Below the pieces are notes generated by a model that had not been told where the DNA came from, did no database searches, and saw nothing but the letters and a program-made list of their open reading frames with translations. Shown here in pieces: positions 2,265 through 22,728 of a DNA stretch of 32,000 bases (positions are counted from its first letter, which is position 1; each line of letters starts with the position of its first letter). The position numbers were made by a program, and so were the translations under genes. Source of the stretch: Phycisphaera mikurensis NBRC 102666 (GTDB lineage Bacteria; Planctomycetota; Phycisphaerae; Phycisphaerales; Phycisphaeraceae); assembly GCF_000284115.1 (NCBI RefSeq), contig NC_017080.1, positions 660,001 to 692,000 on the forward strand, given 5' to 3'.

Positions 2265-2310
2265 CCGCGGACCGCCCGCCGCAGAACCGCGCGGACGCGA
2301 CGGTCCGCGG
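2265..2310. repeat. Copy A of dispersed 46-bp palindromic element (CCGCGGACCG-N26-CGGTCCGCGG)
   Basis: Left arm at 2265-2274, 26-nt spacer, perfectly complementary right arm at 2301-2310. Lies in the divergent lpxC-fabZ / glnA intergenic region. Confidence 0.85.
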
Positions 2311-2411
2311 ATCCGTGGCGGTTCTCGGGCAGGAGGCGGACCGCCCGCCCGCCCACCCCTCCGCCGAGCGGCCGCGCCCGGGCTCCCCCGGCATCGCGAT
2401 ACGCTGGAAGC

Positions 2412-3824
2412 ATGACCGCGGACGAAATCGCCGGGCACATGAAGACCGGCGAGTTCGAGTTCCTCGACTGCCGCTTCCTCGACTTCCCGGGCCTCTGGCA
2501 GAACTGCACCTACACCGCCAGCGAGGTCGACGCCGACCGCCTCGCCGGCGGCTTCGGCTTCGACGGCAGCGCGATCCGCGGCTGGCAGGCGATCAACGAG
2601 TCGGACATGCTCCTGGTGCCCGACTGCGACACCGCCCGACGCGACCCCTTCGCCGAGCGGGCGACGCTCGCGGTGATCTGCGACGTCCGCGACCCGGTGA
2701 CCAAGAAGACGTACGGCCGCGACCCCCGGGCCGTCGCGAAGAAGGCGCAGAAGCACCTGGAAGCCACCGGGATCGCCGACACCGCGCACTTCGGGCCCGA
2801 GCTGGAGTTCTTCCTCTTCGACCGCGTCCGCTTCGACCAGACGACCAACGCCGCCTGGTACGAGGTGGACTCGGCCGAGGGCGTGTGGAACCGCGGCAGC
2901 GACCACCCCGGCAACCGCGGCCACCAGATCCCGATCCGCCAGGGCTACTTCCCCTGCCCGCCGGTCGACACGATGCACGACCTGCGCGGCGAGATGGCGG
3001 CGACGATGCAGAGCCTGGGCATCCGCGTGGAGTGCCACCACCACGAGGTCGCCACCGGCGGGCAGCAGGAGATCGACCTCCGCTTCGACGCGCTCCTGCC
3101 GATGGCCGACAAGTGCATGTTCTACAAGCACGTGGTCAAGCGGGTGGCCGCCAACCACGGGCGCGTCGCCACGTTCATGGCCAAGCCGCTGCTCGGCGAC
3201 AACGGCAGCGGGATGCACACGCACTTCTCGCTGTGGAAGGACGACGAACCGGTCTTCGCCGGCCGCCGCTACGCCGGGCTCTCGCAGCTGGGGCTCTGGG
3301 CGATCGGCGGCATCCTCCGCCACACGCCGTCGCTGCTGGCCTTCTGCGCCCCCGGCACCAACAGCTACAAGCGGCTCGTGCCCGGCTTCGAGGCGCCCGT
3401 CTCGCTGGTCTACTCCTCGCGGAACCGCTCCGCCGCGATCCGCATCCCGCGCTACGACGACCGGCCGGGCTCCAAGCGCCTGGAGTTCCGTTGCCCCGAC
3501 CCCAGCGCCAACCCGTACCTCGCCTTCTCCGCGATCCTGATGGCGGCGCTGGACGGCATCCAGAACGAGATCGACCCCGGCGACCCGGTCGACCTGGACC
3601 TCTACGACCTCGAGCCCGAACGATTCGCGGCCATCCCCCGCACGCCGGCCACGCTCGACGAGGCCCTCTCCGCCCTCGACGCCGACCGCGGCTACCTGCT
3701 CGCCGGCGACGTGTTCCCCGCCGACCTGATCGACGGCTGGATCGCGTACAAGCGGCAGCACGAGGTCGATGCGCTGCGGGCCCGCCCGCACCCGCACGAG
3801 TTCGAGATGTACTTCCACAGCTAG
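2412..3824 (+). CDS. glnA: Glutamine synthetase, type I
   Basis: ORF 2052..3824 trimmed to the ATG at 2412 (MTADEIAGHMKTGEFEFLDCRFLDFPGLWQN...). Full-length GS-I similarity: GPELEFFLFD, HHHEVATGGQQEIDL, GSGMHTHFSLW, NSYKRLVPGFEAP, RIP...RLEFRCPDPSANPYLAFSA. The DLYDLEPE segment resembles the adenylylation-site Tyr region. Confidence 0.95.
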   Translation: MTADEIAGHMKTGEFEFLDCRFLDFPGLWQNCTYTASEVDADRLAGGFGFDGSAIRGWQAINESDMLLVPDCDTARRDPFAERATLAVICDVRDPVTKKTYGRDPRAVAKKAQKHLEATGIADTAHFGPELEFFLFDRVRFDQTTNAAWYEVDSAEGVWNRGSDHPGNRGHQIPIRQGYFPCPPVDTMHDLRGEMAATMQSLGIRVECHHHEVATGGQQEIDLRFDALLPMADKCMFYKHVVKRVAANHGRVATFMAKPLLGDNGSGMHTHFSLWKDDEPVFAGRRYAGLSQLGLWAIGGILRHTPSLLAFCAPGTNSYKRLVPGFEAPVSLVYSSRNRSAAIRIPRYDDRPGSKRLEFRCPDPSANPYLAFSAILMAALDGIQNEIDPGDPVDLDLYDLEPERFAAIPRTPATLDEALSALDADRGYLLAGDVFPADLIDGWIAYKRQHEVDALRARPHPHEFEMYFHS

Positions 3825-3839
3825 GGGATTCCATCCCGC

Positions 3840-3863
3840 GGGCGCGGCGTCGCGGCCGCGCCC
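3840..3863. terminator. GC-rich stem-loop between convergent glnA and rpsO (candidate bidirectional terminator)
   Basis: GGGCGCGGC (3840-3848), loop GTCGCG, GCCGCGCCC (3855-3863): a perfect 9-bp stem. It sits 16 nt after the glnA stop and 5 nt after the rpsO stop. No clear U-tract. Confidence 0.4.
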
Positions 3864-3868
3864 CCGCG

Positions 3869-4138
3869 TCAGCGGCGCAGCCCCAGCTTGGTGATGAGGG
3901 CCTGGTAGCCGGGGCGGTCCTTGCGCTGCAGGTAGGTCAGCAGCCGGCGGCGGCGGGAGACCATCTGGAGCAGGCCGCGCTGGCTGGAGAAGTCGTGGCG
4001 GTGCTGCTTGAGGTGCTCGGTCAGCGACTTGATGCGCTCGGTGAGGATCGAGATCTGGACCTCCGGGCTGCCGGAGTCGTTCGCCGATCGCTGGCTGTCC
4101 GCGATCACTTCCTTCTTGCGGGCCGTCGTGATGCTCAT
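3869..4138 (-). CDS. rpsO: 30S ribosomal protein S15
   Basis: ORF 3869..4462 trimmed to the ATG at 4138. The 89-aa product MSITTARKKEVIADSQRSANDSGSPEVQISILTERIKSLTEHLKQHRHDFSSQRGLLQMVSRRRRLLTYLQRKDRPGYQALITKLGLRR is a canonical S15. Confidence 0.95.
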   Translation of the reverse strand: MSITTARKKEVIADSQRSANDSGSPEVQISILTERIKSLTEHLKQHRHDFSSQRGLLQMVSRRRRLLTYLQRKDRPGYQALITKLGLRR

Positions 4139-4418
4139 GGGGTTCGCCTTTCCAGCGAGGTGTCGCCGCGGGGGACAGCCGGAAACGCTCCAGCCGGTCG
4201 CCCCGGGCCGCCGCGCAGTGTAACGGAGGGACGGACGGACGCTTCCAGGGGCCCGCTGCCCCCGACGAAGCGAAGAGACGGAGGCGAGGAAGCGCTCCGC
4301 CCACGCCCGGCTCGGTCGGCCGGTGGCGCAGACGACCGCGTTCTCGGCGGCCACGCCGCGGCTCTGGCCGGTCGTCTGGGTCGCGCGGTGGCGGCTGCGC
4401 CGGCGTGGAAGCGCAAGC

Positions 4419-4453
4419 GGCGAGGCGGAGCGGCCCAGCCGCTCCGCCTCGCC
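4419..4453 (-). terminator. Perfect 16-bp stem / 3-nt loop hairpin downstream of the 4482..5054 gene
   Basis: GGCGAGGCGGAGCGGC-CCA-GCCGCTCCGCCTCGCC, with the stem fully complementary. It begins 28 nt after the stop of the upstream minus-strand gene and lies upstream of rpsO. No U-tract. Confidence 0.5.
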
Positions 4454-4481
4454 TCGCCTCACCCCGCTCGGCGCGACGCTC

Positions 4482-5054
4482 TTAGGCCTTCCGCCAGCCG
4501 CCGCCCGCGCCGCGGCGGCCGTTGGACACGGCGTTGCCCTCGCGCTTGAGCTTCAGGAGCGCCGAGGTGGGGTCGAATCCGACCTTCTCGGTGATGTCGC
4601 TCTTGGGGACGAACGCGGCGCTGGCACGCGGCAGCGCCTTCAGCACGGCGGCGGTCTCTTCGGCAAGGGTTTCGGAGCTCTTGCGGTTGCGGCGGCCGTC
4701 CGTCTTCTGTGCGGCCGCGGAGGAGCGGGTCTCGCCCTTGGGCTTGAGCTTCACCGGGACACGCAAGCCGTTGGTGACGACGACGAGGGCCTCGGCCACC
4801 AGCCGCAGGTTCTCCTTCTTCTGGCTGGCGTTGCTCACCGAGAGGTTGCGGAGGCTTTCATCGAGCACCTCGCTCGCCGCCTTGTAGGCCGGGTCGTCTT
4901 CCCCGAGGCTTTCGCGGACGCTCTGGCGGCGGCGTTCGATGGCAACGCGTTGCTCTTCGGTGGCGTTGGCGCCCGGAGAGGGCTGCGCGACGAAGTCTTC
5001 GACGAGGGGGGTGAGGGCGGCGCGGATCTTATCGGATAGCTGTTCTTTTGTCAT
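4482..5054 (-). CDS. Hypothetical 190-aa protein, helical N-terminal half and possible winged-helix-like basic C-terminus
   Basis: C-terminal part of ORF 4482..6536, starting at the ATG at 5054 (MTKEQLSDKIRAALTPLVEDF...). An alternative ATG at 5102 would add 16 aa. The rest of that 684-aa ORF is antisense to hemL and is rejected. No family recognised by eye. The C-terminus (ETLAEETAAVLKALP...VPKSDITEKVGFDPTSALLKLKREGNAVSNGRRGAGGGWRKA) has a wHTH-like pattern. Confidence 0.6.
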   Translation of the reverse strand: MTKEQLSDKIRAALTPLVEDFVAQPSPGANATEEQRVAIERRRQSVRESLGEDDPAYKAASEVLDESLRNLSVSNASQKKENLRLVAEALVVVTNGLRVPVKLKPKGETRSSAAAQKTDGRRNRKSSETLAEETAAVLKALPRASAAFVPKSDITEKVGFDPTSALLKLKREGNAVSNGRRGAGGGWRKA

Positions 5055-5240
5055 CTGAGGGTTGGCGGAGCCGTTGGCGTCATGAAGCGGCGAATGTCGC
5101 ATCTCCGAACGATAGGAAAGCGATGGGATCGCCCGGATTCCCGCGGCACGATAGCGCTTCGTCGGGCGTTGTGCAAACGGCGTACGCGATGCGCGGCGCG
5201 GCCGCGGCGGGCGAGCGGTCGCTGCGCGTAGGGTTGGAGC

Positions 5241-6626
5241 ATGACCGCGAATCCCGCGCCCGCCGCTCCGCCCGCCGAACGCTACGCCCGCTCCGCGGCA
5301 TCGCACGCCGAGGCGAAACGCTACATGCCCGGCGGGGTGAACTCGCCGGTCCGCGCCTACCGCGCCGTCGGGCGCGAGCCCGTGACGATCCGCAGCGGGG
5401 CCGGGGCTTGGGTCACCGACGTCGACGGCAACCGCTATGTGGACTACGTCGGCAGCTACGGTCCGCTGATCCTCGGCCACGCGGCGCCGCAAGTGCTTGC
5501 CGCCGTGGGCGAAGCGATGCGCAACGGGACCACCTTCGGGATGCCCACCGAGGCGGAGACGCGGCTGGCCCGAACCGTGGTGGACGCGGTGCCCGGCGTC
5601 GACGTCGTGCGTTTCGTGAACTCCGGCACCGAAGCCGCGATGTCGGCGTTGCGCCTGGCGCGGGCGGCGACGGGCGGGCACCGCGTGATCAAGTGCATCG
5701 GCTGCTACCACGGCCACACCGATGCGATGCTGGTCTCCGCGGGCTCGGCGGCGACCTCGCTGGGTGTGCCCAGCAGCCCGGGCGTGCCCGCGGCGGTGGC
5801 GGCGTCCACGCTGCTCGTGCCCTTCAACGACCTGGACGCGGTGGAGCGGGCCATGGCCACCCACCGCGGCGAGATCGCGTGCATGGCCGTCGAGCCGATC
5901 GCGGGAAACATGGGGCTGGTCCCGCCGGCGCCGGGGTACCTGCAGGGGCTCCGCGCCCTGTGCGACCGCTTCGGCGTCCCGCTGCTCTTCGATGAGGTGA
6001 TGACCGGCTTCCGCGTCGATCACGGCTGCGCCCAGGGGCTGTACGGCGTCACGCCCGACCTCACGTGCCTGGGCAAGGTGGTCGGCGGCGGCCTGCCGTG
6101 CGCGGCCTACGGCGGCCGGGAGGAGCTGATGCGCCAGGTCGCGCCCGACGGGCCGGTCTACCAGGCCGGAACGCTCTCGGGCAACCCCCTGGCGATGGCG
6201 GCGGGGCAGGCGCAGCTCGACGCGCTCGCCGCGGACGGCTTCGCCGCGTACCGCCGGCTCGAGGCGGCGTCGGCACGCCTCGAAGAAGGCCTCCGCGGCC
6301 TCGCCGCCGACGCCGGCTGCCCGCTCACGACCACCCGCGTCGGCTCGATGCTCGGCGTCTTCTTCGTCGAGGAGGACGGCAGCCCCGTCCGCGACTACGC
6401 CGACGCCACGGCGCAGTCGACGCGGCGGTACGCCGCCTTCTTCGGCGCCATGCTCGACGCCGGCGTCATCCTCGCCCCCGCCGCCTTCGAGTGCTGGTTC
6501 GTCTCGACGGCGCACGACGACGAAGCCATCGAGCACACGCTCGCCGCCGCCGGGCCGGCCTTCGCGGCCGCGGCGGCGACGCCGTTCCGCTCGGCGGAGG
6601 TCCGCTCGCCGGAGGCGGACGCGTAG
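5241..6626 (+). CDS. hemL: Glutamate-1-semialdehyde 2,1-aminomutase
   Basis: 461-aa ORF with ATG preceded by GGAG. RYMPGGVNSPVRAY, YVDYVGSYGPLILGH, RFVNSGTEAAMSALRLAR, FDEVMTGFR and LGKVVGGGLP (PLP-Lys region) are all HemL-typical. Confidence 0.95.
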   Translation: MTANPAPAAPPAERYARSAASHAEAKRYMPGGVNSPVRAYRAVGREPVTIRSGAGAWVTDVDGNRYVDYVGSYGPLILGHAAPQVLAAVGEAMRNGTTFGMPTEAETRLARTVVDAVPGVDVVRFVNSGTEAAMSALRLARAATGGHRVIKCIGCYHGHTDAMLVSAGSAATSLGVPSSPGVPAAVAASTLLVPFNDLDAVERAMATHRGEIACMAVEPIAGNMGLVPPAPGYLQGLRALCDRFGVPLLFDEVMTGFRVDHGCAQGLYGVTPDLTCLGKVVGGGLPCAAYGGREELMRQVAPDGPVYQAGTLSGNPLAMAAGQAQLDALAADGFAAYRRLEAASARLEEGLRGLAADAGCPLTTTRVGSMLGVFFVEEDGSPVRDYADATAQSTRRYAAFFGAMLDAGVILAPAAFECWFVSTAHDDEAIEHTLAAAGPAFAAAAATPFRSAEVRSPEADA

Positions 6627-6646
6627 CGACTTACGCTCCCCGCCCC

Positions 6647-8305
6647 ATGCCGGAAGCCTCCCCCAAGAAGACGATCCTCGCCGCCGACAAGCTCGCCCCC
6701 GAGGGGTTGGATTGGATCCGCAGCCAGCCCGACGCGGAGCTGCTCGAGAAGCCGGGGCTGTCCGAGGCGGAGTACGCGGCGATCCTCAGAGGCGGCGGCG
6801 TGCACGCGATGATCGTGCGCTCGGCCATCACGGTGTCCGCCGGGGTGCTCGCGGATCCAGGGGACCTGGCCGTGATCGCGCGGGCCGGCGTGGGCGTCGA
6901 CAACATCGACATCCCCGCCGCGACGGCCAGGGGCATCCTCGTCGTCAACACCGCGGAGGCCTCGACCATCACCACCGCCGAGCACGCCTTCACGCTGCTC
7001 GCGTCGCTGCTGCGGAACATCGCTCCGGCGGCGGCTTCCATGCGGGAGGGCCAGTGGGACCGCTCCAAGTTCCAGGGCCGCCAGCTGCACGGCATGACGC
7101 TGGGCGTCGTCGGCCTGGGCCGCATCGGCCGGACGGTGGCCGAGCGGGCGCTGGCCTTCGGCATGAAGGTCGTCGGGCACGACCCCTTCGTGCACGCGGA
7201 CCTGCAGATCGACGGCCACACCGTGCGGACCTTCCGCAGCTTCGCGGAGCTGGCGCCGCACGCGGACGCCGTCACCTTCCACGTGCCCAAGACCGCGGAA
7301 ACCACCGGCATGCTCGACGAAGCGTCGTTCGCGCTCTGCCGCGACGGCGTCTTCGTGGTCAACGCCTCCCGCGGCGGCATCGTCGACGAGCAAGCCCTGG
7401 TGGCGGCGCTGGGCAGCGGCAAGTGCGGCGGGGCCGCGTTGGACGTCTACACCAGCGAGCCTCCGCCGGCCGACAGCCCGCTGCGATCGGCTCCGCGCCT
7501 GCTGCTCACGCCCCACCTGGGCGCGAGCACGCAGGAGGCGCAGACCGCGGTCTCGGTCGAGGCGGCCAAGGCGTGCATGGCCTACCTGCGGGGGGAGGGG
7601 ATCTCCGGTGCGGTCAACGCGGGCGGCGTCCGCGTCGACCTGTCGCCGCGGCAGCGGGCCTTCGTCGAGCTGGCGGGGAAGATGGCGACGCTGCTGTCGC
7701 CGATGATCACCCGCGGCATCGCCGGCGTGGAGGTGGCGCTCGACGGCGACGACCTCGCGCCCGCCGCGGGCACCGTCGAGCGGACCGTGCTCGTCGGCCT
7801 GCTCCAGCGTCACCTCGCCTCGGCGCTGAACGTCATCAACGTCGCCGACGTGGCGGAGAAGCGCGGCATCCGGGTCACCACCCGCAGCTCCGGCGGCGAC
7901 CCCGGCGGCGGCAAGCTCACGCTGACCGTGCACGGCCCCGCCGATGCGGTCGACGCGAGCACCGAGGCGGCCGACCGCAGCCGCCGGATCGTCGGCCGCG
8001 TGTACGCCGACGGCGCCCCGCGCGTCGTGGAGGTCAACGGCTACGCGATGGACATGGTGCCCGCCGGCGCGATGGTGCTGATCCAGAACGAGGACAAGCC
8101 GGGGATCATCGGCGCCGTCGGCACGGCCTTCGGATCGGCCGGCGTGAACATCGCCGACATGACCATCTCCCGGCGGTCCCGCGAGGGTGAGCACGTGGCG
8201 ACGGCGCTCATGCTCCTCAAGCTCGACGCCGCCGCGCCGGCGGGATTGCTCGCGGACCTGGAGGCCCTGCCGGCGGTGCGGAAGGTCGCCGCGGTGCAGG
8301 TCTAG
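6647..8305 (+). CDS. serA: D-3-phosphoglycerate dehydrogenase with C-terminal ACT domain
   Basis: ORF 6065..8305 trimmed to the ATG at 6647 (MPEASPKKTILAADKLAPEGL...), 20 nt after the hemL stop. Contains the 2-hydroxyacid dehydrogenase NAD-binding motif GVVGLGRIGRTVAERA, plus NASRGGIVDE and TPHLGAST. The ACT-like end is MVLIQNEDKPGIIGAVGTAFG. Confidence 0.93.
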   Translation: MPEASPKKTILAADKLAPEGLDWIRSQPDAELLEKPGLSEAEYAAILRGGGVHAMIVRSAITVSAGVLADPGDLAVIARAGVGVDNIDIPAATARGILVVNTAEASTITTAEHAFTLLASLLRNIAPAAASMREGQWDRSKFQGRQLHGMTLGVVGLGRIGRTVAERALAFGMKVVGHDPFVHADLQIDGHTVRTFRSFAELAPHADAVTFHVPKTAETTGMLDEASFALCRDGVFVVNASRGGIVDEQALVAALGSGKCGGAALDVYTSEPPPADSPLRSAPRLLLTPHLGASTQEAQTAVSVEAAKACMAYLRGEGISGAVNAGGVRVDLSPRQRAFVELAGKMATLLSPMITRGIAGVEVALDGDDLAPAAGTVERTVLVGLLQRHLASALNVINVADVAEKRGIRVTTRSSGGDPGGGKLTLTVHGPADAVDASTEAADRSRRIVGRVYADGAPRVVEVNGYAMDMVPAGAMVLIQNEDKPGIIGAVGTAFGSAGVNIADMTISRRSREGEHVATALMLLKLDAAAPAGLLADLEALPAVRKVAAVQV

Positions 8306-8966
8306 ACGGCGCCGCATCGGCCCGGGCGCGCGACCGGGCGGGCGTGTCGAGCGAGCGCCAGAGCAGCCACGCCGCGAGCGTGCGGTGCGGACGCCACCGC
8401 TCGCCGATGGCGGCGGTCTCCCGGGCCGTTGGCCGCTGGGCCAGGCCGAGCACGCGGCCGGTGGCGATGCGGATCGCGAGGTCGTCCACCGGCCAGACGT
8501 CCGGTCGGGCGGCCCCGAAGATCAGCCACATCTGCGCGGTCCAGCGGCCGACCCCGCGGACCGCGGTGAGCGCGGCGACCGCCTCGTCGTCTCCCATGCG
8601 GTTGAGCTTCCGCGCGTCCAGCCGGCCCCCGGCGAAGTGCTCCGCGAGGTCGACCAGGTACGACTTCTTCTGGCGCGACAGCCCGCAGAAGCGGAGCGTG
8701 TCGTCGTCGAGGCTCCCGTCGCGGCACGCCGCGAGGACGCTCGCGGGCGTCGCCCGGCCGGCGTGCGCCTCGAAGCGCGCGAACAGCGTCGCCGCCCCCT
8801 TGGCCGAGAGTTGCTGCGCGAAGACGGCGCGGGCCAGCCGGCGGAACACGCCCCGCTCCGGGGCGAAGGGGCACGGCGGCGCGCTCGCGATCAGCGGGCC
8901 CAGGTGCGGGTCTGTGCGGAGGGCCCGGGTGCCGGCGTCCCACCGGGAGGAGGCGGGTTCGGGCAT
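8217..8966 (-). CDS. DNA-3-methyladenine glycosylase II family (AlkA-like, HhH-GPD)
   Basis: ORF 8217..9101 trimmed to the ATG at 8966 (MPEPASSRWDAGTRALRTDPHLGPLI...). The HhH-GPD signature is LTAVRGVGRWTAQMWLIFGAARPDVWPVDDLAIR. The last ~40 aa are Pro/Arg/Ala-rich low complexity and overlap the serA 3' end. Confidence 0.8.
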   Translation of the reverse strand: MPEPASSRWDAGTRALRTDPHLGPLIASAPPCPFAPERGVFRRLARAVFAQQLSAKGAATLFARFEAHAGRATPASVLAACRDGSLDDDTLRFCGLSRQKKSYLVDLAEHFAGGRLDARKLNRMGDDEAVAALTAVRGVGRWTAQMWLIFGAARPDVWPVDDLAIRIATGRVLGLAQRPTARETAAIGERWRPHRTLAAWLLWRSLDTPARSRARADAAPSRPAPRRPSAPPAGPPGPRAIPPARRRRA

Positions 8967-9154
8967 CCCCGCAACGTAGCCGGCGGCGGCGCACCACGCC
9001 CGGCTTCCGGGGCGCCTCCGCGGGCGGGTCGTGCGCCCCGCTCCGTCGGCCGCGTCGCCCCGCGGAGGCGGGGTGGCTCCGTCTTCTCGCGAAGGACACA
9101 CCCCGCGGACGCAGGCCGATCCGGAAGCGGCGCACGATGCTCTAGCTTCTCCGC

Positions 9155-9655: not shown

Positions 9656-9665
9656 ACCGACTTCT

Positions 9666-11063: not shown

Positions 11064-11134
11064 CGGCCGAAGCTAGCCGCCGCGGCGGCGGCCCGTCTTG
11101 CGGCGACCGCAGCGGCGAGGCCGCCGGCTCCCGC

Positions 11135-12683: not shown

Positions 12684-12729
12684 CCGCGGACCGCCGCGCC
12701 CGCCGGTCGCTCGGCCTCGCGGTCCGCGG
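12684..12729. repeat. Copy D of dispersed 46-bp palindromic element
   Basis: CCGCGGACCG at 12684-12693, 26-nt spacer, CGGTCCGCGG at 12720-12729. Lies in the divergent intergenic region between the BNR gene and rsmB. Confidence 0.85.
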
Positions 12730-12852
12730 CCCCGCCCGCCGCCCGCCGCCCGCCGCGCGTACCCTCGGCCCCTCGCCCACCCGCGGAGCGGACCCCTGCC
12801 AAGCCAAGCCCGGTGGGCCGCCACCGCCTACCTCAAGAAGTCCGCCGAGGCG

Positions 12853-14091
12853 ATGCCGGAGCTGCAGCCCGCCGAACCGGCCGCGCTGGGCGAGGGGCTC
12901 TCGCCCGCCGACGCCCGGCTCGCGCTCGCGATCGTGCGGACCGTGCACCAGCGTTGGCTGACGCTGGGGCCGCTGCTGCAGTCGGTCGGCTGCCCGGCGG
13001 TGTCGACGCTGTCGCCGGGGCTGCAGGCCGTGCTGCTCGGCGCCGCCGCCCAGCTGCTGTTCTTCGACCGGCTGCCCGCCCGCGCCGTCGTCCACGAGGC
13101 GGTGGACCTCGCCCGGCGCTTCGCCAATCCCAACGCCGCCGGCTTCGTCAACGCGGTGCTGCGCGCGCTGGACGAGGCGGTGATGTCGTCGCCCGAGGCG
13201 ACGGGCGAGCCCTGGACGCCGGGGAGGTCCCGGCTGCCGGTGGACCCGCGTGGCGGCCAGGCCCTCACCTCCCGCCCGCTCTGGGGCGACCTGCTCCCCG
13301 ACCCGTCGAACCCGGTGCGGCACCTCGCCGCCGCGTGCAGCCTGCCGCGGCCGCTGGTCCGCGCGCTGGTCGAGGCCCACGGCCCCGAGGCCGCCGCGGG
13401 CGTCGCCGCGGCGGCGGTCCGGCGGCCCCCGGTCTTCGTGGCCGAGGGCACCGGTCCGCCCGAGCGGTACGACGGTGCGCCCGTCTGGCTCGCCGCCCAC
13501 CTCGCCGAGAACCCCGCCCGCCGCGTGCAGGACCCGGCGTCGGCGCTCGCGGTGGCCGCGACCGCGGGCTTGACGCCGCGGAGGGTCCTGGACCTCTGCG
13601 CCGGCCGCGGCACCAAGACCCGGCAGCTGCTCGCGACCCACCCCGACGCCGAGGTGTCGGCCTGGGACCCCGACGCGGAGCGTGCCCGCGACCTGGCGGC
13701 GATCCCCGGCGTGGACGTCGGCGAACCGGCGGCCGACGCGCGTTTCGACCTCGTCCTGCTCGACGTCCCGTGCACGAACACCGGCGTGCTCGCCCGCCGG
13801 CCCGAGGCCCGCTACCGCTGGAGCGCCCGGCGGCTCGCCTCGCTGGTCGCCCTGCAGCGCGAGATCCTCACCCGCGGCGCCGGGTTCGTCGCCCCCGGCG
13901 GGCACCTGCTCTACAGCACCTGCTCGGTGGATCCCGCGGAGAACCAGGAGCAGGCGGCGTGGCTCCTGGGCCAGCCCGCGGGCGCACGCTTCGCGCCCGT
14001 GGGCGAGCGCCTGCGCCTGCCCGGCGGCGTGGGCGAGGCCTACGCGGACGGCAGTTACCATTCGCTCTTCTGCGCGGGGTCCCGACCATGA
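12853..14091 (+). CDS. rsmB: 16S rRNA (cytosine-C5)-methyltransferase RsmB/Sun family
   Basis: 412-aa ORF. NusB-like N-terminal region (FANPNAAGFVNAVLRAL), SAM-binding motif VLDLCAGRGTKT, and the catalytic Cys motifs DVPCTNTGV and YSTCSVDPAENQ. No in-frame ATG/GTG/TTG lies further upstream. Confidence 0.88.
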   Translation: MPELQPAEPAALGEGLSPADARLALAIVRTVHQRWLTLGPLLQSVGCPAVSTLSPGLQAVLLGAAAQLLFFDRLPARAVVHEAVDLARRFANPNAAGFVNAVLRALDEAVMSSPEATGEPWTPGRSRLPVDPRGGQALTSRPLWGDLLPDPSNPVRHLAAACSLPRPLVRALVEAHGPEAAAGVAAAAVRRPPVFVAEGTGPPERYDGAPVWLAAHLAENPARRVQDPASALAVAATAGLTPRRVLDLCAGRGTKTRQLLATHPDAEVSAWDPDAERARDLAAIPGVDVGEPAADARFDLVLLDVPCTNTGVLARRPEARYRWSARRLASLVALQREILTRGAGFVAPGGHLLYSTCSVDPAENQEQAAWLLGQPAGARFAPVGERLRLPGGVGEAYADGSYHSLFCAGSRP

Positions 14092-14522: not shown

Positions 14523-14578
14523 CGCGCCAAGCTCGGTCAAGACGCGGCGCAGCATCCGGCCGCGGTAGCGTCCCGCCC

Positions 14579-15730: not shown

Positions 15731-15804
15731 CGCACCGCGCGTCCTCGCCGGATCGGTGAGCGCCCGCAGAGGCGATCCCGGGAAGGATGCACGGTGCGCT
15801 CCGA

Positions 15805-15850
15805 CCGCGGACCGCGAGCCTTCGCACCGGAAAACGACGACGGTCCGCGG
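15805..15850. repeat. Copy B of dispersed 46-bp palindromic element
   Basis: CCGCGGACCG at 15805-15814, 26-nt spacer, CGGTCCGCGG at 15841-15850. Lies in the convergent gap between the ARH gene and the zinc-ribbon gene. It is immediately followed by a second small hairpin, CGCACC-GGC-GGTGCG (15851-15865). Confidence 0.85.
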
Positions 15851-15911
15851 CGCACCGGCGGTGCGGGGGCCTCCGGCCCGGTGGATCGCGGCCGGCTCGA
15901 GGCGGAACCCC

Positions 15912-16664: not shown

Positions 16665-16803
16665 AGCGGGCTCCAAGGCGGGGGGCGTCAGTGTAGAGCC
16701 GTTGGGGCCGCACGCGGGCGGCTGGGGCGGCTTGGCAAGCCTCCACGGCGTCGATACACTCCCCACCCGACGCCCGGCGGCGGCCCCCTCCGCGAGGAAC
16801 CCC

Positions 16804-16876
16804 GGGGCCTTAGCTCAGCTGGGAGAGCGCTTGTATGGCATACAAGAGGTCAGGAGTTCGATCCTCCTAGGCTCCA
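16804..16876 (+). tRNA. tRNA-Ala (anticodon GGC)
   Basis: GGGGCCT-TA-GCTC-AGCTGGGA-GAGC-G-CTTGT-ATGGCAT-ACAAG-AGGTC-AGGAG-TTCGATC-CTCCT-AGGCTCC-A folds as a cloverleaf. The anticodon loop AT-GGC-AT gives GGC. The G3:U70 alanine identity pair is present. CCA is not encoded. Confidence 0.93.
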
Positions 16877-16900
16877 CTCGCCTCCGGGTGTCGAATCAAG

Positions 16901-16932
16901 GGACCGCCGCCCGGCTTGCCGGGCGGCGGTCC
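16901..16932 (+). terminator. Perfect 14-bp stem / 4-nt loop hairpin after tRNA-Ala
   Basis: GGACCGCCGCCCGG-CTTG-CCGGGCGGCGGTCC, located 25 nt downstream of the tRNA 3' end. No U-tract follows. Confidence 0.55.
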
Positions 16933-17003
16933 TGCACGCCCCTGCCGCCCTCCGGGAGGACCGGGATTCCCCGGGGTGCCGGATCCGGTGCGCCCGGCGT
17001 AGG

Positions 17004-17978: not shown

Positions 17979-18045
17979 CACGACCGCGCTTCTCTGCCCG
18001 CTCCGGCGAGCTCCCCATCGGCGACGGCCCGAAGACCCGGCCGCA

Positions 18046-18690
18046 GGTGGCTCATCGACGCCGTCGATGTAGAAGCGGATTGCAACCGGAGCAGCCCGAG
18101 TCCGCGATTGAGCGTCGTTCCCCGTTCCCGCTTCTCCGTCCGCCTCAGCCGCCACATCCACGGAGTGGATGAGCCACCCGGTCAGGTGGCTCATCGACTC
18201 CGTCGATGTAGAAGCTGGTTGAACCCGAGACGGCCCGAAGCCGCAACCGGGTGGGGTTGCCGCTTCCAGCTCATCCGCGTCCCTAAGCCGCCACATCCAC
18301 GGAGTGGATGAGCCACCCGGCCAGGTGGCTCATCGACTCCGTCGATGTAGAAGCGGATTGCAACCGAGACGGCCCGAAGCCGCGACCGGGCGTGGTTCCC
18401 CGTTCCCGCTTCTCCGTCTGCCTGAGCCGCCACATCCACGGAGTGGATGAGCCACCCGGCCAGGTGGCTCATCGACTCCGTCGATGTAGAAGCTGGTTGA
18501 ACCCGAGACGGCCCGAAGCCGCGACCGGGCGTGGTTCCCCGTTCCCGCTTCTCCGTCTGCTTAAGCCGCCACATCCACGGAGTGGATGAGCCACCCGGCC
18601 GCAGGTGGCTCATCGACTCCGTCGATGTAGAAGCCGACTGCAACCGAAACGGCCCGAAGCCGCGACCGGGCGGGCGTGGCACCCGGGAGG
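18046..18690. repeat. Tandem array, ~4.6 copies of a 139-bp unit built on a ~60-nt nested palindrome
   Basis: GGTGGCTCATCGAC starts at 18046, 18185, 18324, 18463 and 18604, giving spacings of 139, 139, 139 and 141. There are four full palindromic cores of the form CCACATCCACGGAGTGGATGAGCCACC-CGGCCA-GGTGGCTCATCGACTCCGTCGATGTAG. They lie at 18152-18211, 18291-18350, 18430-18489 and 18569-18630. A solo right arm lies at 18046-18072. The array fills the gap between the convergent genes ending at 17978 and 18705. Confidence 0.92.
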
Positions 18691-18704
18691 GTGCGAGCGT
18701 TTGG

Positions 18705-19703
18705 TTACTGCTGCTGCTGCATCTGCTGCGACTGGTAGCTGAAGGGCAGCGGCTCGTCGGGGATGCTCTGCGGCTTGTCCGGCGGGATCCAGCCCGAACG
18801 CGGCCGCGAAGAGGTCCGCGGGGTCTCGTGGAGCGACGCGACGTGGACGCTCACCCGCAGCGAGGAGGCGGCGCTCCCGCGGAAGACGCCCTTGGTCGGC
18901 GGGACGTCGGCGTAGTCGCGGCCGATGGCGGTGCGGATGTGGTGCGCGCCGCACGCGGTGCCGCTGGTGGGATCGAAGCCGGCCCAGCCGTAGCCGGGGA
19001 GGAAGCACTCGACCCAGGCGTGGGTCGCGGCGAGGTCCGCCACGTCCGCGGCGGCGGCCTCGCCGTGCAGGTAGCCCGAGACGTAGCGGCACGGCAGGCC
19101 GTGGTGGCGGGCGGCGGCGATGAGCACGTGGGCGAAGTCCTGGCACACGCCCGCGCGGCTCTCCAGCGCCTCGTCGATGGGCGAGTCGGCGGTGGTGCTG
19201 GCGGTGCGGTAGGTGAAGCCCTCGTGGACCGCGCGGCACAGCGTGGCGATCGCCTCCAGCGGCGACGCGGGCCGCGCCGGCAGAGCGCCGTCGGCGAAGG
19301 CCGTCAGCGCCGCGGTCCGGTGGGCGAAGTGGCTGCCCTGGAGCATGTCCCAGAGGAATTGCCCCTCGTTGTCCTCGCCGACGAGGCCGTGGAGCTTTTC
19401 CCACCCGAAGGCCTCGCCGCGGGCCTGCTCCTCCGAAGGCAGCGGCGTCGGCTCGTCCACCACGACGTGCGACTCCGCCTCGATCACCTGCTCGACGTGC
19501 ACATTGGGGAGCGTGAAGTGGTGCACGGCGTTGCCCAGCCAATCGGAGAACGTCTTCAGCTGCACGCGCGGGCTGACCCATAGGTCGAAGGCCCGCAGCC
19601 GCTGGTGCCACTCGTCCCGGGGCTTCATGCGGAGTTCCATGACGGACTCCCGGACGGGCTTGTCGTACGTGAACGTGTTCCGGTGGGTGATCGTGTATTG
19701 CAT
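18705..19703 (-). CDS. Transglutaminase-family protein (Bact_transglu_N plus transglutaminase core)
   Basis: ORF 18705..19928 trimmed to the ATG at 19703 (MQYTITHRNTFTYDKPVRESVMELRMKPRD...). The Cys-His-Asp triad context is intact: RAGVCQDFAHVL, THAWVECFLPGYGWAGFDPT. The C-terminus is a Gln-rich tail (SYQSQQMQQQQ). Confidence 0.9.
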   Translation of the reverse strand: MQYTITHRNTFTYDKPVRESVMELRMKPRDEWHQRLRAFDLWVSPRVQLKTFSDWLGNAVHHFTLPNVHVEQVIEAESHVVVDEPTPLPSEEQARGEAFGWEKLHGLVGEDNEGQFLWDMLQGSHFAHRTAALTAFADGALPARPASPLEAIATLCRAVHEGFTYRTASTTADSPIDEALESRAGVCQDFAHVLIAAARHHGLPCRYVSGYLHGEAAAADVADLAATHAWVECFLPGYGWAGFDPTSGTACGAHHIRTAIGRDYADVPPTKGVFRGSAASSLRVSVHVASLHETPRTSSRPRSGWIPPDKPQSIPDEPLPFSYQSQQMQQQQ

Positions 19704-19854
19704 GGGTCTCCGCTTCACGGGAGGGGTCGGGGGGGCGATCCGCTCGCCCCGGCGGCTCGGCTGCGCCTCCACCTGGGCGTGCCGCCGGCGGCGGGTGGGC
19801 GACCGGCCGCGGGCGCTCCGGGGCCCCGGCGGCCGCACCACCGGCGGCGTCGGG

Positions 19855-20841
19855 TCAAAGGACGCTCGCGATGGGGTAGGCGACGAAGCCCTGGAAGGTC
19901 CCGTCGACGACCTCGCGGGCGCGGGCATCGACCTCGTCGAGGAACGCCCCGAGGCCGCCCTCGACCAGGTCGCCGGGGTCGGTGAACTCGACGCGGCTCT
20001 TCAGGCGGCCGGCCGCCCGCAGCGGGCCGCCGGCGAGGCGGTCGCCGGCGGTCTCGGCGATGCGCTTGAGGTCGTAGTGGATCGCGTCGACCGTGTAGCG
20101 GATCGACCGGGGGAACCCGTTGTCGAGCGCCAGGAAGCCGACGACCTCGTCGAGGCCCGTGCCGGTGGGGTGCTGCGAGAGGAAGCTCTCGTAGGCGGAC
20201 ACGCACCGCATGAGCGTCACGCCGGTGAGGTGCCGGTCGGGCTCGAAGCCGGCGTCGGCGTCGGCCCCGAGCTCCTCGCCGAGGTCTCCGCCGCGGGGGT
20301 CGTTCATCGCGGGCCGGCACAGGTGCACGCGGAGCAGCCGGGTCAGCGCGTCGAGGCGTTCGAGGTGGCGGCCCAGCCGCAGGAAGAAGTAGGCCTCGTC
20401 GTGGCGGACGGTGGCGTCGGTGATGCCGGTGAAGAGGCGGACGCCCTCACGCACCCGCGCGAAGTAGTCGGAGTTGGTGCCCTCCCAGGCCTCCGCCGCC
20501 TCGGCCCGGAGCACGTCGAAGTAGAGCGCGTTGAGCTGCTCGAACATCTCCGTGGAGACCCGCTCGCGCACCTGCCGGGCCGACTCGCGGGCCGCCGAGA
20601 CCGAGGAGCGGACGCTGCAGGTCAGCTGCGGGTCGAAGCCGATGGCGGCGATCGCCGACGAAGACGAGAGCGGCTCGGGCAGCGGGCAGGCGAGGCTCTC
20701 CAGCAGCATGGCCCAGCGCCGGCGGCCGGCGCTGGTGTCGAGCATCGAGGCCATCTCGGTCTCGACCACGCGAGCGGCGTGCTCGGCGCGTTCGAGCTGG
20801 CGGCCCAGGTGAAGGAGTGTGTCGGCGACGCGTGAGAGCAT
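19855..20841 (-). CDS. Alpha-E domain protein (DUF403)
   Basis: 328-aa ORF with an ATG start. The all-helical sequence begins MLSRVADTLLHLGRQLERAEHAARVVE, which is the characteristic ER-motif N-terminus of alpha-E proteins. It sits between the CP-ATP-grasp and transglutaminase genes, as in the conserved triad. Confidence 0.85.
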   Translation of the reverse strand: MLSRVADTLLHLGRQLERAEHAARVVETEMASMLDTSAGRRRWAMLLESLACPLPEPLSSSSAIAAIGFDPQLTCSVRSSVSAARESARQVRERVSTEMFEQLNALYFDVLRAEAAEAWEGTNSDYFARVREGVRLFTGITDATVRHDEAYFFLRLGRHLERLDALTRLLRVHLCRPAMNDPRGGDLGEELGADADAGFEPDRHLTGVTLMRCVSAYESFLSQHPTGTGLDEVVGFLALDNGFPRSIRYTVDAIHYDLKRIAETAGDRLAGGPLRAAGRLKSRVEFTDPGDLVEGGLGAFLDEVDARAREVVDGTFQGFVAYPIASVL

Positions 20842-20997
20842 GGCGAGGGTTCCGCTGGGCGGGTCGGGCCCCGGGTGTCTCGGGGCTCCGAGGCGGCAAC
20901 CGCCGCCTCGGCGTGAGGAGCCCGTCGGCTCCGCGGGGGGTCACCCCGGCGAGGGTTCGGGGTCCCGCCGGCCGTCGCCGCGGGATCGGTGGGGCCG

Positions 20998-22563
20998 CTA
21001 CTGCCGGTCCACGCCGATGGCGGCGGGCGGGGGAGCGTTGGCGGGCGTGGGCACGTCGCCCTCGAGCACCCAGGTGTCCTTGCTGCCGCCGCCCTGGCTG
21101 GAGTTGACGACGAGGCTGCCGCGGTGGAGCGCGACGCGGGTCAGGCCGCCGGGGGTGATCCGGGCCTTCTCGCCGTCGAAGAGGATGTACGGCCGCAGGT
21201 CGATGTGCCGGGGCTCGACCTGCGCCCGGCCCCGCTCTGCGGGTGGGGCGTCGCTCCCGGCGTCCGCGTCGATCAGGCAGGGGGCCCGGCTGAAGGACAG
21301 CGTCGGCTGGGCGATGTAGTTGCGGGGGTTGCTCCTGATGGCCGCGGCGAACTCGTCCTGCTGGGCCCGGGTCGAGTGCGGGCCGATGAGCATGCCGTAG
21401 CCGCCCGCCTCGCCCACGGCCTTGACCACGAGCTTGTCGAGATTCTCCAGCACGTGCTGCCGCTGGGCGGGCACGCTGCACAGGAAGGTTTCGATGTTGC
21501 GGAGCTTGGGCTCCTCGCCGAGGTAGTAACGGATGAGGTCGGGCACGTAGGCGTAGAGCGCCTTGTCGTCGGCGATGCCGTTGCCGATCGCGTTGCCGAT
21601 GCCCACGTTGCCCGCCCGGTACGCGTTGAAGAGGCCCGGCACGCCCAGCACCGAGTCGCGGCGGAAGGCCACCGGGTCGAGGAAGTCGTCGTCGATGCGG
21701 CGGTAGATGACGTCGACCCGCCGCAGGCCGCCGGTGGTCCGGGCGTAGACGACCTCGTCGTGCACGAGCAGGTCGCGCCCCTCCACCAGCAGCGCCCCCA
21801 TCTGGCGGGCCAGGAAGGTGTGCTCGAAGTAGGCCGAGTTGTAAACGCCCGGCGTGAGCACCACGACGCTGGGCTTGTCCACCGGCCGCGGGCACAGCGC
21901 CCGCATCGTGTCCATCAGCGACTGCGGGTACGCGTCCACCGCCCGCACCTCCTGGTCCTGGAACAGCCGCGGGAAGGTGCGCTTGGACACCTCGCGGTTC
22001 GCGAGCATGTAGGAGGCGCCCGAGGGCACGCGGAGGTTGTCCTCCAGCACCGCGTAGCTGCCGTCGGCGTCGCGGATGAGGTCGCTGCCGGCGATCGACA
22101 CGTAGACGTCGCGTGGCACCCGCATCCCGAGCATCTCGCGGCGGTAGTGCTTGCAGGAGAGCACCAGCTCGCGCGGCACCACGCGGTCGTCGAAGAGCTT
22201 CTGCTCGCCGTAGAGGTCTTCCAGGAACTTGTTGAGCGCGAGGATGCGCTGGCCGAGCCCGTCCTCGAGCCTCGCCCATTCGTCCGCCGCGATCACCCGC
22301 GGCAGCGGGTCGTACGGGAAGATCTTCTCGGTGCCCTCGCTCTGGCCGTACACCGTGAAGGTGATGCCCTGCGAGCGGAAGGACGCCTCGGCGGCGGCTT
22401 GGCGACGCGCGAGCTCTTCCGCCGACATGCCCGCGAGCCGCCCGTGCAGGCGGTCGTAGTGCGAGCGGGCCACGCCGGGCGACTCGAACATCTCGTCGTA
22501 GAACCCGCCGCCGAGGTCGTAGGCGTCGAAGGAGACCGGTTGTTCGCGGGCGGCGGGGGGCAT
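20998..22563 (-). CDS. Circularly permuted type-2 ATP-grasp protein (DUF404/DUF407)
   Basis: 521-aa ORF with an ATG start. FDAYDLGGGFYDEMF, GITFTVYG, IFPYDPLPRVI, VLEDNLRVPSGASYML, VYNSAYFEHTFLARQMG, VIYRRIDDDFLDP, GNAIGNGIADDKALYAYVP and VVKAVGEAGGYGM all match this family. Confidence 0.9.
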   Translation of the reverse strand: MPPAAREQPVSFDAYDLGGGFYDEMFESPGVARSHYDRLHGRLAGMSAEELARRQAAAEASFRSQGITFTVYGQSEGTEKIFPYDPLPRVIAADEWARLEDGLGQRILALNKFLEDLYGEQKLFDDRVVPRELVLSCKHYRREMLGMRVPRDVYVSIAGSDLIRDADGSYAVLEDNLRVPSGASYMLANREVSKRTFPRLFQDQEVRAVDAYPQSLMDTMRALCPRPVDKPSVVVLTPGVYNSAYFEHTFLARQMGALLVEGRDLLVHDEVVYARTTGGLRRVDVIYRRIDDDFLDPVAFRRDSVLGVPGLFNAYRAGNVGIGNAIGNGIADDKALYAYVPDLIRYYLGEEPKLRNIETFLCSVPAQRQHVLENLDKLVVKAVGEAGGYGMLIGPHSTRAQQDEFAAAIRSNPRNYIAQPTLSFSRAPCLIDADAGSDAPPAERGRAQVEPRHIDLRPYILFDGEKARITPGGLTRVALHRGSLVVNSSQGGGSKDTWVLEGDVPTPANAPPPAAIGVDRQ

Positions 22564-22682
22564 GGCCGCTTCAACCTAACGCCTGACCCGGCCGCCCGGG
22601 GGAGGGAGAATCCTGATCGCGACGGAGCGGGGAGCCGGTGGGGCAAGCGGCACACGCCCGGAGGGCGGCCACCGGCCGGCTT

Positions 22683-22728
22683 CCGCGGACCGCCGAGCCC
22701 GAAGGCCCGGAGCGGCCGCGGTCCGCGG
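22683..22728. repeat. Copy C of dispersed 46-bp palindromic element
   Basis: CCGCGGACCG at 22683-22692, 26-nt spacer, CGGTCCGCGG at 22719-22728. Lies between the GH125 stop (22805) and the ATP-grasp start (22563). Confidence 0.85.

Follow-up and report, generated by a model that had tools for sequence, protein, structure and literature searches.

A 46-bp palindromic motif with near-invariant arms and a fixed 26-nt interior is dispersed in Phycisphaera mikurensis and its relatives

A 32,000-nt stretch of Phycisphaera mikurensis DNA (the window) contains four perfect copies of the motif CCGCGGACCG-N26-CGGTCCGCGG, in which two inverted 10-nt arms enclose an interior of constant length, and four related lineages share this pair of arms and its spacing, which occur in L124, L178, L183, L187 and L188. 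We consider it almost an even bet, at a probability of roughly 0.45, that the motif is a bipartite recognition site read by a lineage-specific factor and kept by selection or drive. Fixed arms, a drifting interior and at least one copy created in place together point to such a site rather than to an ordinary jumping repeat. Palindromic repeats scattered through a genome are mostly classed either as REP-like mobile DNA or as terminators. The family described here, from a little-studied phylum, looks like a REPIN, and yet it arose in place where this could be tested, with arms that are letter-perfect across species and an interior that drifts.

Census and placement of the motif

The initial annotation of this DNA reported copies A to D, whose 10-nt arms are perfect and 26 nt apart, two of them reaching 11 bp, and we recovered all four in the gene contexts it had described (Table 1). 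The tally itself was incomplete, as the window also holds copy E, with one additional spacer nucleotide, and copy F, with two mismatches. Because copy E lies inside a gene, the description of the motif as wholly intergenic is true for the four copies and false for the family. The membership of copy F is ambiguous: its left arm codes for RRRGR-stop, the C-terminal end of a PEP-CTERM protein, its right arm belongs to a terminator-like stem, and in a syntenic relative both arms are identical while the inner spacer has diverged. Just one exact arm in the window has no partner; it is not a family member and fits the chance expectation of about one. A look-alike at 28648-28693 was rejected on its poor arms and its lack of conservation in the syntenic relative.

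Table 1. Motif copies and the single unpaired exact arm in the window
Feature	Position	Strand	Arms and spacer	Context
Copy A	2265..2310		perfect arms, N26	235-bp divergent gap, lpxC-fabZ start (2176, -) / glnA start (2412, +)
Copy D	12684..12729		perfect arms, N26; inner C-G pair extends arms to 11 bp	divergent gap, BNR gene / rsmB
Copy B	15805..15850		perfect arms, N26	convergent gap, ARH-like (stop 15730) / CT398-like zinc-ribbon (stop 15912)
Copy C	22683..22728		perfect arms, N26; inner C-G pair extends arms to 11 bp	GH125 / ATP-grasp gap, 77 bp downstream of GH125 stop (22805, -) and 120 bp upstream of ATP-grasp start (22563, -)
Copy E	24989..25035		perfect arms, 27-nt spacer	inside GH38 alpha-mannosidase gene (24190-26949, -); encodes SPRTVELPVTQRVTVRGG
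Copy F	31670..31715		N26, two mismatches (CCGCGGACGG / CGATCCGCGG)	ambiguous membership
Lone exact arm	8554..8563	+	unpaired	within coding region

At three or fewer mismatches, the window contains five pairs where shuffled sequences lead us to expect 0.15, and none of 100 shuffles reached five, which bears out the earlier claim that the element is discrete and not due to chance, its arms being conserved and its spacing fixed. Across the 70.7 kb of P. mikurensis that we sampled from its 3.8-Mb genome, there are 15 copies with a 26-nt spacer at two or fewer mismatches (11, 3 and 1 copies with zero, one and two, respectively). When gaps of 16 to 40 nt were scanned in the same 70.7 kb, only N26 (15 pairs) and N27 (one pair) were populated, and the other gaps gave no pair at two or fewer mismatches beyond overlap noise; nor did this sample contain an above-background tail of copies with three or four mismatches. 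The density of about one copy per 4-5 kb, in P. mikurensis and in close relatives, extrapolates to several hundred sites per genome.

It is pairs of arms, and not arms by themselves, that make up the unit. Of 11 exact arm 10-mers in the window, ten belong to such pairs, as do 20 of 21 once the contig flanks are included; unpaired single arms occur at about chance level, and enrichment is confined to the N26 pair. The half-site can be written (at)CCGCGGACCG(Y), inverted, with half-site centers 36 bp apart. The 46-bp unit is two-fold symmetric. CCGCGG and CGGWCCG, two palindromes of restriction type, lie within its arms, neither of which has a REP-like hairpin.

Genes are strongly avoided: only 2-3 of 14 copies are fully genic in DNA that is 89% coding (P about 8e-9 for 3 of 14). 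The 13 intergenic copies are distributed over three divergent, three convergent and seven tandem gaps, a mix that matches random placement; copies occupy unconstrained sequence and enter genes rarely. At least one gene end lies upstream of 10 of these 13, and some copies fill an entire intercistronic gap (for example L121 15854-15899 and L122 20108-20153). We found no visible target-site duplication around the copies and no T-run or U-run after the right arm.

Conservation, in-place origin and the spacer

Some motif copies of the relatives occupy corresponding intergenic gaps, with diverged spacers and flanks. Upstream of rsmB, for instance, L178 has a perfect copy and L183 one with a single mismatch, each about as far from the gene as copy D. 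In this gap and in the one that separates rsmB from a BFN-domain gene, both shared, the arms are identical at 19-20 of 20 positions, the spacers at 9-15 of 26 and the flanks at about one third. Both orthology and separate gain in the same gap fit these shared-gap copies. Compared across these genomes, the arms and spacing hardly vary, be it inside one species or from one species to another, even as the spacers and flanks diverge.

The initial annotation had proposed looking for the motif in orthologous gaps of relatives, and these gave a divided picture: copies exist in four lineages, sometimes in the same gaps, whereas 19 kb of the L179/L184 lineage contained no pair at three or fewer mismatches against about four expected. 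Altogether, no motif was found in one close (sister) lineage and two distant relatives. The relatives that carry it have 69-72% G+C, and the sister lineage that does not is equally G+C-rich. Its absence from particular lineages fits a motif dependent on a factor that a lineage may lose.

Two copies inside genes allowed us to ask how the motif arises. The copies in the GH38 and glycosyltransferase genes are both colinear with homologous proteins and so are not insertions. The spacer of copy E is orthologous to a relative's GH38 gene (22 of 27 positions identical), and its arms differ from that relative at five and two nucleotides, a total of seven substitutions that cause four amino-acid changes. 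In this gene an outgroup, L181, matches L124 at 8 of 10 positions of the right arm and 4 of 10 of the left, as well as in residues such as the Leu that the right arm of copy E made Val. As judged from these alignments, the arms of copy E are derived in the P. mikurensis lineage and were built on either side of pre-existing DNA. This polarization with an outgroup covers copy E alone; the glycosyltransferase copy, for its part, contains the rare codons CGT, TTG and GCT inside the element. The flanks of the intergenic copies are too diverged to distinguish insertion from origin in place. Similar spacers in L178 and L180 result from duplicated units on a 300-bp scale, not from a lone 46-mer, and other copies increased in number only when carried along in larger duplications.

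The claim that the spacers are free held insofar as those of P. mikurensis are all different, and near-random apart from one segmental duplicate, but it missed a weak two-fold-symmetric profile, with Y at position 1, R at 26, G at 3 and C at 24. The half-site profile thus continues symmetrically into the spacer, which is also richer in A/T around positions 7-10 and 17-20, in two patches that lie about 10 bp from each other on the two sides of the dyad. Some few copies at dispersed sites agree at 18-19 of 26 spacer positions, more than in shuffled controls. Spacers of P. mikurensis have a folding z-score of -0.18, and those of relatives and metagenomes fold slightly better than shuffled sequence (mean z -0.6). 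The likeness of dispersed pairs and this slightly better folding could reflect common descent or a hairpin function.

Hidden covariation inside the spacer, which the initial annotation had suggested looking for, fell below shuffled controls, and 60-75% of inner pairs were unpaired. In P. mikurensis, positions 11 and 36 vary independently of one another, and compensatory change in the arms was absent in the seven imperfect copies. The arms can form a stable stem on either strand; at the gathering score, Rfam left the element unmatched and matched only tRNA and SRP RNA in 134 kb.

Candidate explanations

If the motif is a recognition site, its reader would be a sequence-specific factor, common to P. 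mikurensis and to most of its relatives at genus level, that recognizes the whole 46-bp unit. Most likely this would be a dimeric or dimer-of-dimers protein that binds duplex DNA and gauges the distance between the arms; the interior is weakly constrained, and two A/T-richer patches flank its dyad. Purifying selection at each site, or molecular drive favoring perfect sites, could account for upkeep; transposition of a 46-bp cassette probably would not. Among the three ideas put forward in the initial annotation, a two-half-site binding site fits best, given the strict spacing, the independent half-sites, the lack of compensation and at least one copy made in place. Creation in place and letter-perfect arms point to a strong sequence-specific reader at what extrapolates to several hundred sites, and candidate roles include nucleoid or chromosome organization, a self-DNA or uptake signal and the site of a DNA-modifying enzyme. 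Besides the spacer likeness and folding noted above, two observations run counter to the binding-site reading: 20 near-perfect positions at hundreds of sites exceed usual binding-site selection, and the architecture of the motif is that described for REPINs (PMC3116915).

Alternatively, the motif may be a REPIN-like miniature mobile element, a possibility that we take seriously while judging it unlikely. The arms would then be ends recognized, on a single-stranded hairpin, by a REP-associated tyrosine transposase or similar enzyme, and the 46-bp unit would be copied to new extragenic sites, where the spacer decays and only copies with intact ends stay active. Here the architectural part of the initial annotation's mobile-hairpin idea stands: the ends, fixed distance, less-conserved spacer, excess of doublets over singlets, random extragenic placement and flank-including tandem clusters all match, and patchy presence among close lineages is expected if one enzyme gene is needed. 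The weak common spacer consensus, the dispersed pairs with shared spacer positions and the slightly better folding in relatives also favor mobility. However, neither genic copy is an insertion, the GH38 spacer being the gene's own orthologous sequence, and the P. mikurensis copies (about 70 kb) share no full-length master sequence. Further evidence against mobility comes from the larger duplications behind the similar spacers of L178 and L180, from the missing target-site duplications and from arms of just 10 nt without a REP-like hairpin. Compensatory changes are lacking in spacer and arms, although they are common in REPINs (PMC3116915), and no RAYT was noticed among the Pfam labels of the called genes in roughly 190 kb of family-bearing loci. 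A rather improbable further reading is a genome-wide "self" signal spread by molecular drive in place of per-site selection, either as a bipartite DNA-uptake or recombination signal of the planctomycete or as a site that a dedicated enzyme would write or repair onto existing DNA. Such a signal would explain why nearly all copies are perfect without a decaying tail, why arms lie around native genic sequence and why one sister lineage has lost the motif.

An element acting in RNA, with the 10-bp G+C-rich stem and 26-nt loop serving in either direction as a terminator, 3'-end protector or processing site, is very improbable. The stable stem, the frequent position downstream of gene ends and the copies that fill whole intercistronic gaps would suit it, but this third idea of the initial annotation finds no support beyond the arms and sits badly with the copies in divergent promoter regions, where three of the 13 intergenic copies have no gene end nearby. 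The gap types are those of random placement, no U-run follows the stem, the arm sequence itself is invariant and not pairing alone, with mismatches left uncompensated, and a loop need not be exactly 26 nt; Rfam families are likewise unmatched. As for an artefact of CCGCGG-rich, 73% G+C composition, we give it practically no chance. Single-arm variants with one mismatch do occur in the window at the shuffled expectation (30 versus 28.3), and in many other high-GC genomes chance produces a lone perfect pair. Yet exact arms occur almost only as pairs at one spacing, pairs far exceed the shuffled number, chance matches in unrelated high-GC genomes are single per locus with a flat spacing distribution, and the family is common to G+C-rich relatives while missing from an equally G+C-rich sister. 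The initial annotation had reasoned that an artefact would place arms as densely in genes and spread their spacing broadly; we found gene avoidance and, in 70.7 kb, N26 plus a single N27, and this spacing control refutes a compositional origin.

Knowing the reader would bring to light a nucleoid-organizing or self-recognition system of Planctomycetota, or else a new way in which REP-like families originate. In practical terms, one exact pattern picks out a genus-level clade of Phycisphaerae in metagenomes. We know of no DNA-uptake or recombination signal of this kind in Planctomycetota.

Comparison with known systems

Two familiar classes were rejected. An intrinsic (Rho-independent) terminator does not fit a right arm without a following T-run, a 26-nt loop and three copies in divergent gaps, and an integron attC site, which marks the 3' ends of co-oriented cassettes beside intI, does not fit copies whose neighbors are housekeeping genes in both orientations and which, in the window, have no integrase close by.

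CIRCE, an inverted-repeat operator with 9-bp arms and a 9-nt spacer, represents operators that a dimeric repressor recognizes in double-stranded DNA. Such operators share with the motif perfectly conserved inverted arms, a free interior of fixed length and conservation across species. They are, however, few per genome and sit at specific promoters, whereas the motif occurs at several hundred sites by extrapolation, has no promoter link and has a far longer gap of 26 bp.

In USS, phased A/T-rich patches adjoin the core. Like the DUS of Neisseriaceae and the USS of Pasteurellaceae, the motif is exact, mostly perfect and over-represented, present in related species and missing in others; it can likewise originate in place by substitution, including in genes with accommodating codons, and DUS and USS often form inverted pairs near gene ends (PMC2397512). 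In contrast to these signals, the single arm of the motif is not over-represented, only the N26 pair is, and the unit is 46 bp long, two-fold symmetric and far more strongly biased toward intergenic DNA. To our knowledge, neither competence nor uptake bias is known in Planctomycetota.

The cyanobacterial HIP1 (highly iterated palindrome), GCGATCGC, is a palindromic motif whose over-abundance is upheld by selection and not transposition, as may be the case here, and it is conserved at orthologous positions; no gene-level function has been found for it, and it has been tied to chromosome structure and methyltransferases (PMC5861425, PMC4390886). HIP1 is a single 8-mer, abundant in genes at about one per gene, whereas the motif has two parts 26 bp apart, lies mostly outside genes and is present about once per 4-5 kb.

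In form the motif resembles REPINs, hairpin-forming REP doublets that RAYT transposases mobilize (Bertels and Rainey 2011, PMC3116915). REPINs have invariant inverted ends at a fixed distance around a less-conserved spacer, their doublets far outnumber singlets, and they are extragenic and can form tandem clusters with their flanks (PMC3116915). The motif shares the invariant inverted ends, the fixed distance, the excess of pairs over single ends and random extragenic placement, as well as hundreds of copies per genome (an extrapolated number for the motif), occasional flank-including tandem clusters and vertical persistence in a clade. It differs in having 10-nt ends and a total of 46 bp against invariant cores of 16 nt and 71 bp or more, in a spacer without pairing or compensatory change, and in the lack of a full-length master sequence, with two genic copies that arose without insertion.

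Spacing and placement of the paired motif

The initial annotation described four perfect copies of a 46-bp element, in which two inverted 10-nt arms flank a 26-nt spacer (N26), and a pattern search of the window recovered all four at the positions claimed for them (see table), together with a 2-mismatch N26 copy, F. These 5 matches compare with 0.15 expected in this ~73% G+C sequence, and 0 of 100 dinucleotide-preserving shuffles reached 5. A variable-gap scan found a fifth perfect-arm pair, whose spacer is 27 nt. All but one of the 11 exact copies of the arm 10-mer in the window are members of element pairs, and single-arm one-mismatch variants occur at the shuffled rate (30 versus 28.3); thus, the signal is the pair and not the 10-mer. 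The gene map, which we based on third-position G+C and Pfam, was as previously described. A weaker look-alike was rejected as a member for its poor arms and because the corresponding stretch of the syntenic relative is dissimilar and has a 9-bp gap. We also set copy F aside as conservation evidence, since its arms are additionally constrained by protein C-terminal codons and a terminator stem.

Through gene look-ups, which placed the window on contig JACHEL010000006.1 of assembly GCA_014207395.1, we reached a P. mikurensis sample of ~70 kb. The contig flanks of the window, L121 and L122, hold five further perfect N26 copies, and only one of the 21 exact arms across window and flanks (49.9 kb) lacks a partner; a second region of the genome, L180, added two perfect and three 1-mismatch copies. 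Over the 70.7 kb entering our spacing table, N26 pairs number 11, 3, and 1 at 0, 1, and 2 mismatches and there is one perfect N27 pair, with the remaining gaps in the 16-40 range averaging 0.00, 0.09, and 0.14 pairs at the same mismatch levels. N26 does not rise above background at 3-4 mismatches, and we therefore see no tail of copies in decay or in formation, although this is a rough bound only. Among the matches listed from unrelated high-GC genomes, perfect pairs were single per locus and distributed uniformly across gaps of 20-32. Given that the spacing is restricted to N26 and one N27, we conclude that this is a discrete element and not a compositional artefact, the alternative that had been raised alongside it. 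Extrapolated, its density of one copy per 4.4 kb would correspond to several hundred copies per genome.

Called genes make up 89% of the three P. mikurensis loci, and just 3 of 14 copies are fully genic (binomial P about 8e-9), one of them in a 150-aa ORF of doubtful status. Of the 13 copies at gene ends or between genes, 7 are in tandem gaps and 3 each in divergent and convergent ones, approximately as in random placement among gaps, and some occupy almost an entire gap (in L121, for example, a divergent one of 78 bp and an intercistronic one of 65 bp). Because of this near-random split and these gap-filling copies, we find no tie of the element to promoters or 3' ends. A stem-loop acting solely at the RNA level, one of the roles first proposed, is unlikely; transcripts will nevertheless contain the stem, and it may incidentally affect termination or stability. 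The element had no match in Rfam or among viral contigs.

Element copies and neighboring features (window coordinates unless a locus is named; single numbers for copies are starts)
Feature	Coordinates	Context
Copy A	2265	flanked by starts of lpxC-fabZ (2176, -) and glnA (2412, +)
Copy D	12684	between BNR gene and rsmB
Copy B	15805	between convergent ends of ARH-like gene and zinc-ribbon gene
Copy C	22683	between GH125 stop and ATP-grasp start
N27 copy	24989-25035	within GH38 mannosidase gene (24190-26949, -)
Copy F	31670	
Rejected look-alike	28648-28693	
Genic copy in L121	L121 16275-16320	WaaG-like glycosyltransferase
SRP RNA gene	L122 14328-14427 (window about -2250 to -2151)	just left of window, 137 bp from one element
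Heptamer GCCCGCC run (ccccgcccgccgcccgccgcccgccgcg)	12730-12757	directly adjoins copy D
rsmB first ATG	12853	
Conserved peptide PSQARxxAATAFLKKS	about 12795-12853	upstream of rsmB first ATG
tRNA gene	16804-16876 (+)	between zinc-ribbon gene and following gene
ADP-ribosylglycohydrolase (ARH) gene	26996-28510	
Small perfect palindrome TGTATGATACA	28540-28550	near divergent ARH gene; not conserved in L124
Sigma-70-like TTGCAA-N16-TACCAT	28744-28782	immediately upstream of GntR/LacI-type regulator gene (ATG 28780)
Terminator-like hairpin CCGCGGGCGGCC-CACC-GGCCTCCCGCGG, then TTTT	31710-31750	3' of PEP-CTERM protein gene; kept in L124; 5' stem overlaps copy F right arm
109-nt repeat units	L180 4269-4377, 4491-4599, 4855-4963	
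Repeats of 168-nt and 152-bp units	L178 1-7600 and 9402-9856	168-nt stretch adjoins rve-family integrase gene
Inside-out arms	L186 ~2700, L187 ~770, L188 ~1030	upstream of rsmB
Copy on metagenome contig	L132 1488-1533	

Distribution and turnover among relatives

Identical arms and spacing occur in four related lineages. In a MAG relative whose proteins are 75-77% identical, locus L124 contains three perfect and three imperfect copies and L178 contains eleven perfect ones; L183 and L187/L188 also bear the element, as do some 30 contigs from a single marine metagenome. Across 68 kb of these relatives (L124, L178, L183, and L186-188), N26 pairs number 17, 4, and 1 at 0, 1, and 2 mismatches. A sister lineage (L179, L184/185) has no element in 19 kb, against about 4 expected, and none was present in the loci fetched from the distant relatives L181 and L182. 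We considered CCGGAAACCG-N28-CGGTTTCCGG in L181 as possible kin of the element and rejected it, as it occurs once only. RsmB identities are 74-84% within a star-like clade and 50% for the outgroup, and on this weakly resolved tree the simplest reading would be ancestral presence followed by one loss. A perfect copy of the motif also lies on a 39% G+C metagenome contig, L132, with a spacer rich in restriction-type sites (ACCGGT, GGTCACC); it is unlikely to be a family member and could stem from a linker or vector or be a coincidence.

The gap upstream of rsmB is occupied in P. mikurensis, L178, and L183, and that between rsmB and the next gene is occupied in L183, L187, and L188. Arms in these shared gaps are identical at 19-20 of 20 positions, spacers at 9-15 of 26, and flanks at about one third; orthology of intergenic copies is putative, assigned by position and not by alignable flanks. 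Copies have also turned over: the one in GH38 is absent in L124, and an L178 copy after a BFN-domain gene is absent in P. mikurensis, with a 13/20 match at that place in L179.

Upstream of rsmB, the lineage represented by L186-188 is without the element and carries the arms inside out, right arm then left arm (GGTCCGCGG-N8-CCGCGRACC), which may be left over from two neighboring copies or may be a short hairpin. Relatives begin rsmB with an ATG at the position of a conserved peptide, where the window has CTG, so that the start codon is either non-canonical or wrongly assigned, and the gene probably starts upstream of its first ATG. Elsewhere in the window, the sigma-70-like site of the GntR/LacI-type regulator gene (conserved as TTGACA...TACCAT in L124) lies only 7 nt from the start codon, which suggests a near-leaderless transcript, and the small palindrome nearby could be the operator of this regulator.

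Copies inside genes and within larger repeats

Alignment of the GH38 protein with ten homologues and solved GH38 structures revealed no indel across the N27 copy. Its spacer is identical at 22 of 27 positions to the orthologous L124 gene (80% over the whole gene), and its arms match at only 5/10 and 8/10. The more distant orthologue in L181 agrees with L124 (right arm 8/10, fast-changing left arm only 4/10), and the two share residues such as Leu, which the P. mikurensis right arm turned into Val. Because L181 and L124 agree, the perfect arms are derived in P. mikurensis, having arisen through seven substitutions with four amino-acid replacements; this is the one copy whose in-place origin is polarized by an outgroup. 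The glycosyltransferase copy is colinear with the family fold and uses the genome-rare codons CGT, TTG, and GCT exactly at positions where the element profile wants T. These two genic copies are not insertions, and a composition-based estimate of ~3e-5 perfect pairs per 70 kb rules out chance for both. The ARH and GH38 genes, separate in the window, are called as one 1365-aa fusion in L124 (10001-14098), and GH125, which overlaps the GH38 stop in the window, is missing there.

Similar spacers, where checkable, ride on larger duplications, namely, a 586-bp tandem duplication in L180 and an L178 array whose units measure about 280-340 bp. A few dispersed P. mikurensis copy pairs share 18-19 of 26 spacer positions (shuffle 99.9th percentile, 16), which could reflect old common descent or merely a shared positional profile. 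L180 also contains a different repeat of three 109-nt units, 98-100% identical, each of them a long hairpin whose 24-nt inverted arms (GGTGCCACGCCGCTTGCGGGGTGG) are perfect and separated by 58 nt; it has the appearance of a genuine MITE- or REPIN-type element copied in the recent past. In L178, 14 copies of a 168-nt unit (start GGCCTAAC, end GTTAGGCC-like), spaced about 280-900 bp apart, make up a 7.6-kb stretch, and the 46-bp element follows many of them. Immediately upstream of rsmB, L178 carries another, separate tandem repeat, three copies of a 152-bp unit; the L178 repeats have no Rfam match.

Spacer profile and competing explanations

The spacers had been described as largely different, and across 66-78 distinct pooled copies they are indeed largely free, although a two-fold-symmetric profile is present (the left arm is followed by Y, S, and G, and the right arm is preceded by their mirror image). 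Two patches richer in A/T, T-biased at element positions about 17-20 and A-biased at about 27-30, lie one helical turn apart. The dinucleotide AT directly adjoins the outer side of an arm at 23% of ends, compared with an expectation of about 2%; roughly independent at both ends, it was rejected as an orientation marker and is a half-site extension without polarity.

The main rival explanation is a mobile hairpin of REPIN type, which we retain because the architecture closely matches the published description of REPINs (Bertels and Rainey 2011, PMC3116915), but it fails on three counts: spacer pairing, a master sequence in the ~70 kb sampled, and, for the two genic copies, insertion. Hidden spacer covariation, suggested earlier as a check, fell below shuffled controls (35 copies), with inner pairs 60-75% unpaired. 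The sole inner-pair association in the pooled copies, T-A/C-G at the first inner pair (positions 11 and 36), was rejected as a hairpin extension: it is a lineage effect that vanishes within P. mikurensis, where the counts (C-G 5, C-A 5, T-A 2, T-G 2) are exactly those of independence. Seven imperfect copies carry changes at arm positions 1, 8, or 9, and the partner arm never compensates. Relative to shuffled sequence, P. mikurensis spacers show no gain in folding (z -0.18), and the gain over all copies is only slight (z -0.6). There is no selection for base pairing across the spacer.

Several features together point to a factor that would read both arms at once, most simply a predicted dimeric protein on duplex DNA: the strict spacing, arms that are invariant in sequence and not in pairing, half-sites that vary independently, the symmetric profile with its A/T patches, and in-place creation. 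Of the ideas first proposed, a two-half-site binding site is thus the one that these sequence patterns favor. The perfection of the family could reflect unusually strong site-by-site selection or, by analogy, drive of the kind invoked for uptake sequences. The searchable literature yielded no paper with the arm sequence in a relevant context and none describing the motif. As motifs maintained in place, HIP1 and DUS are its nearest analogues.
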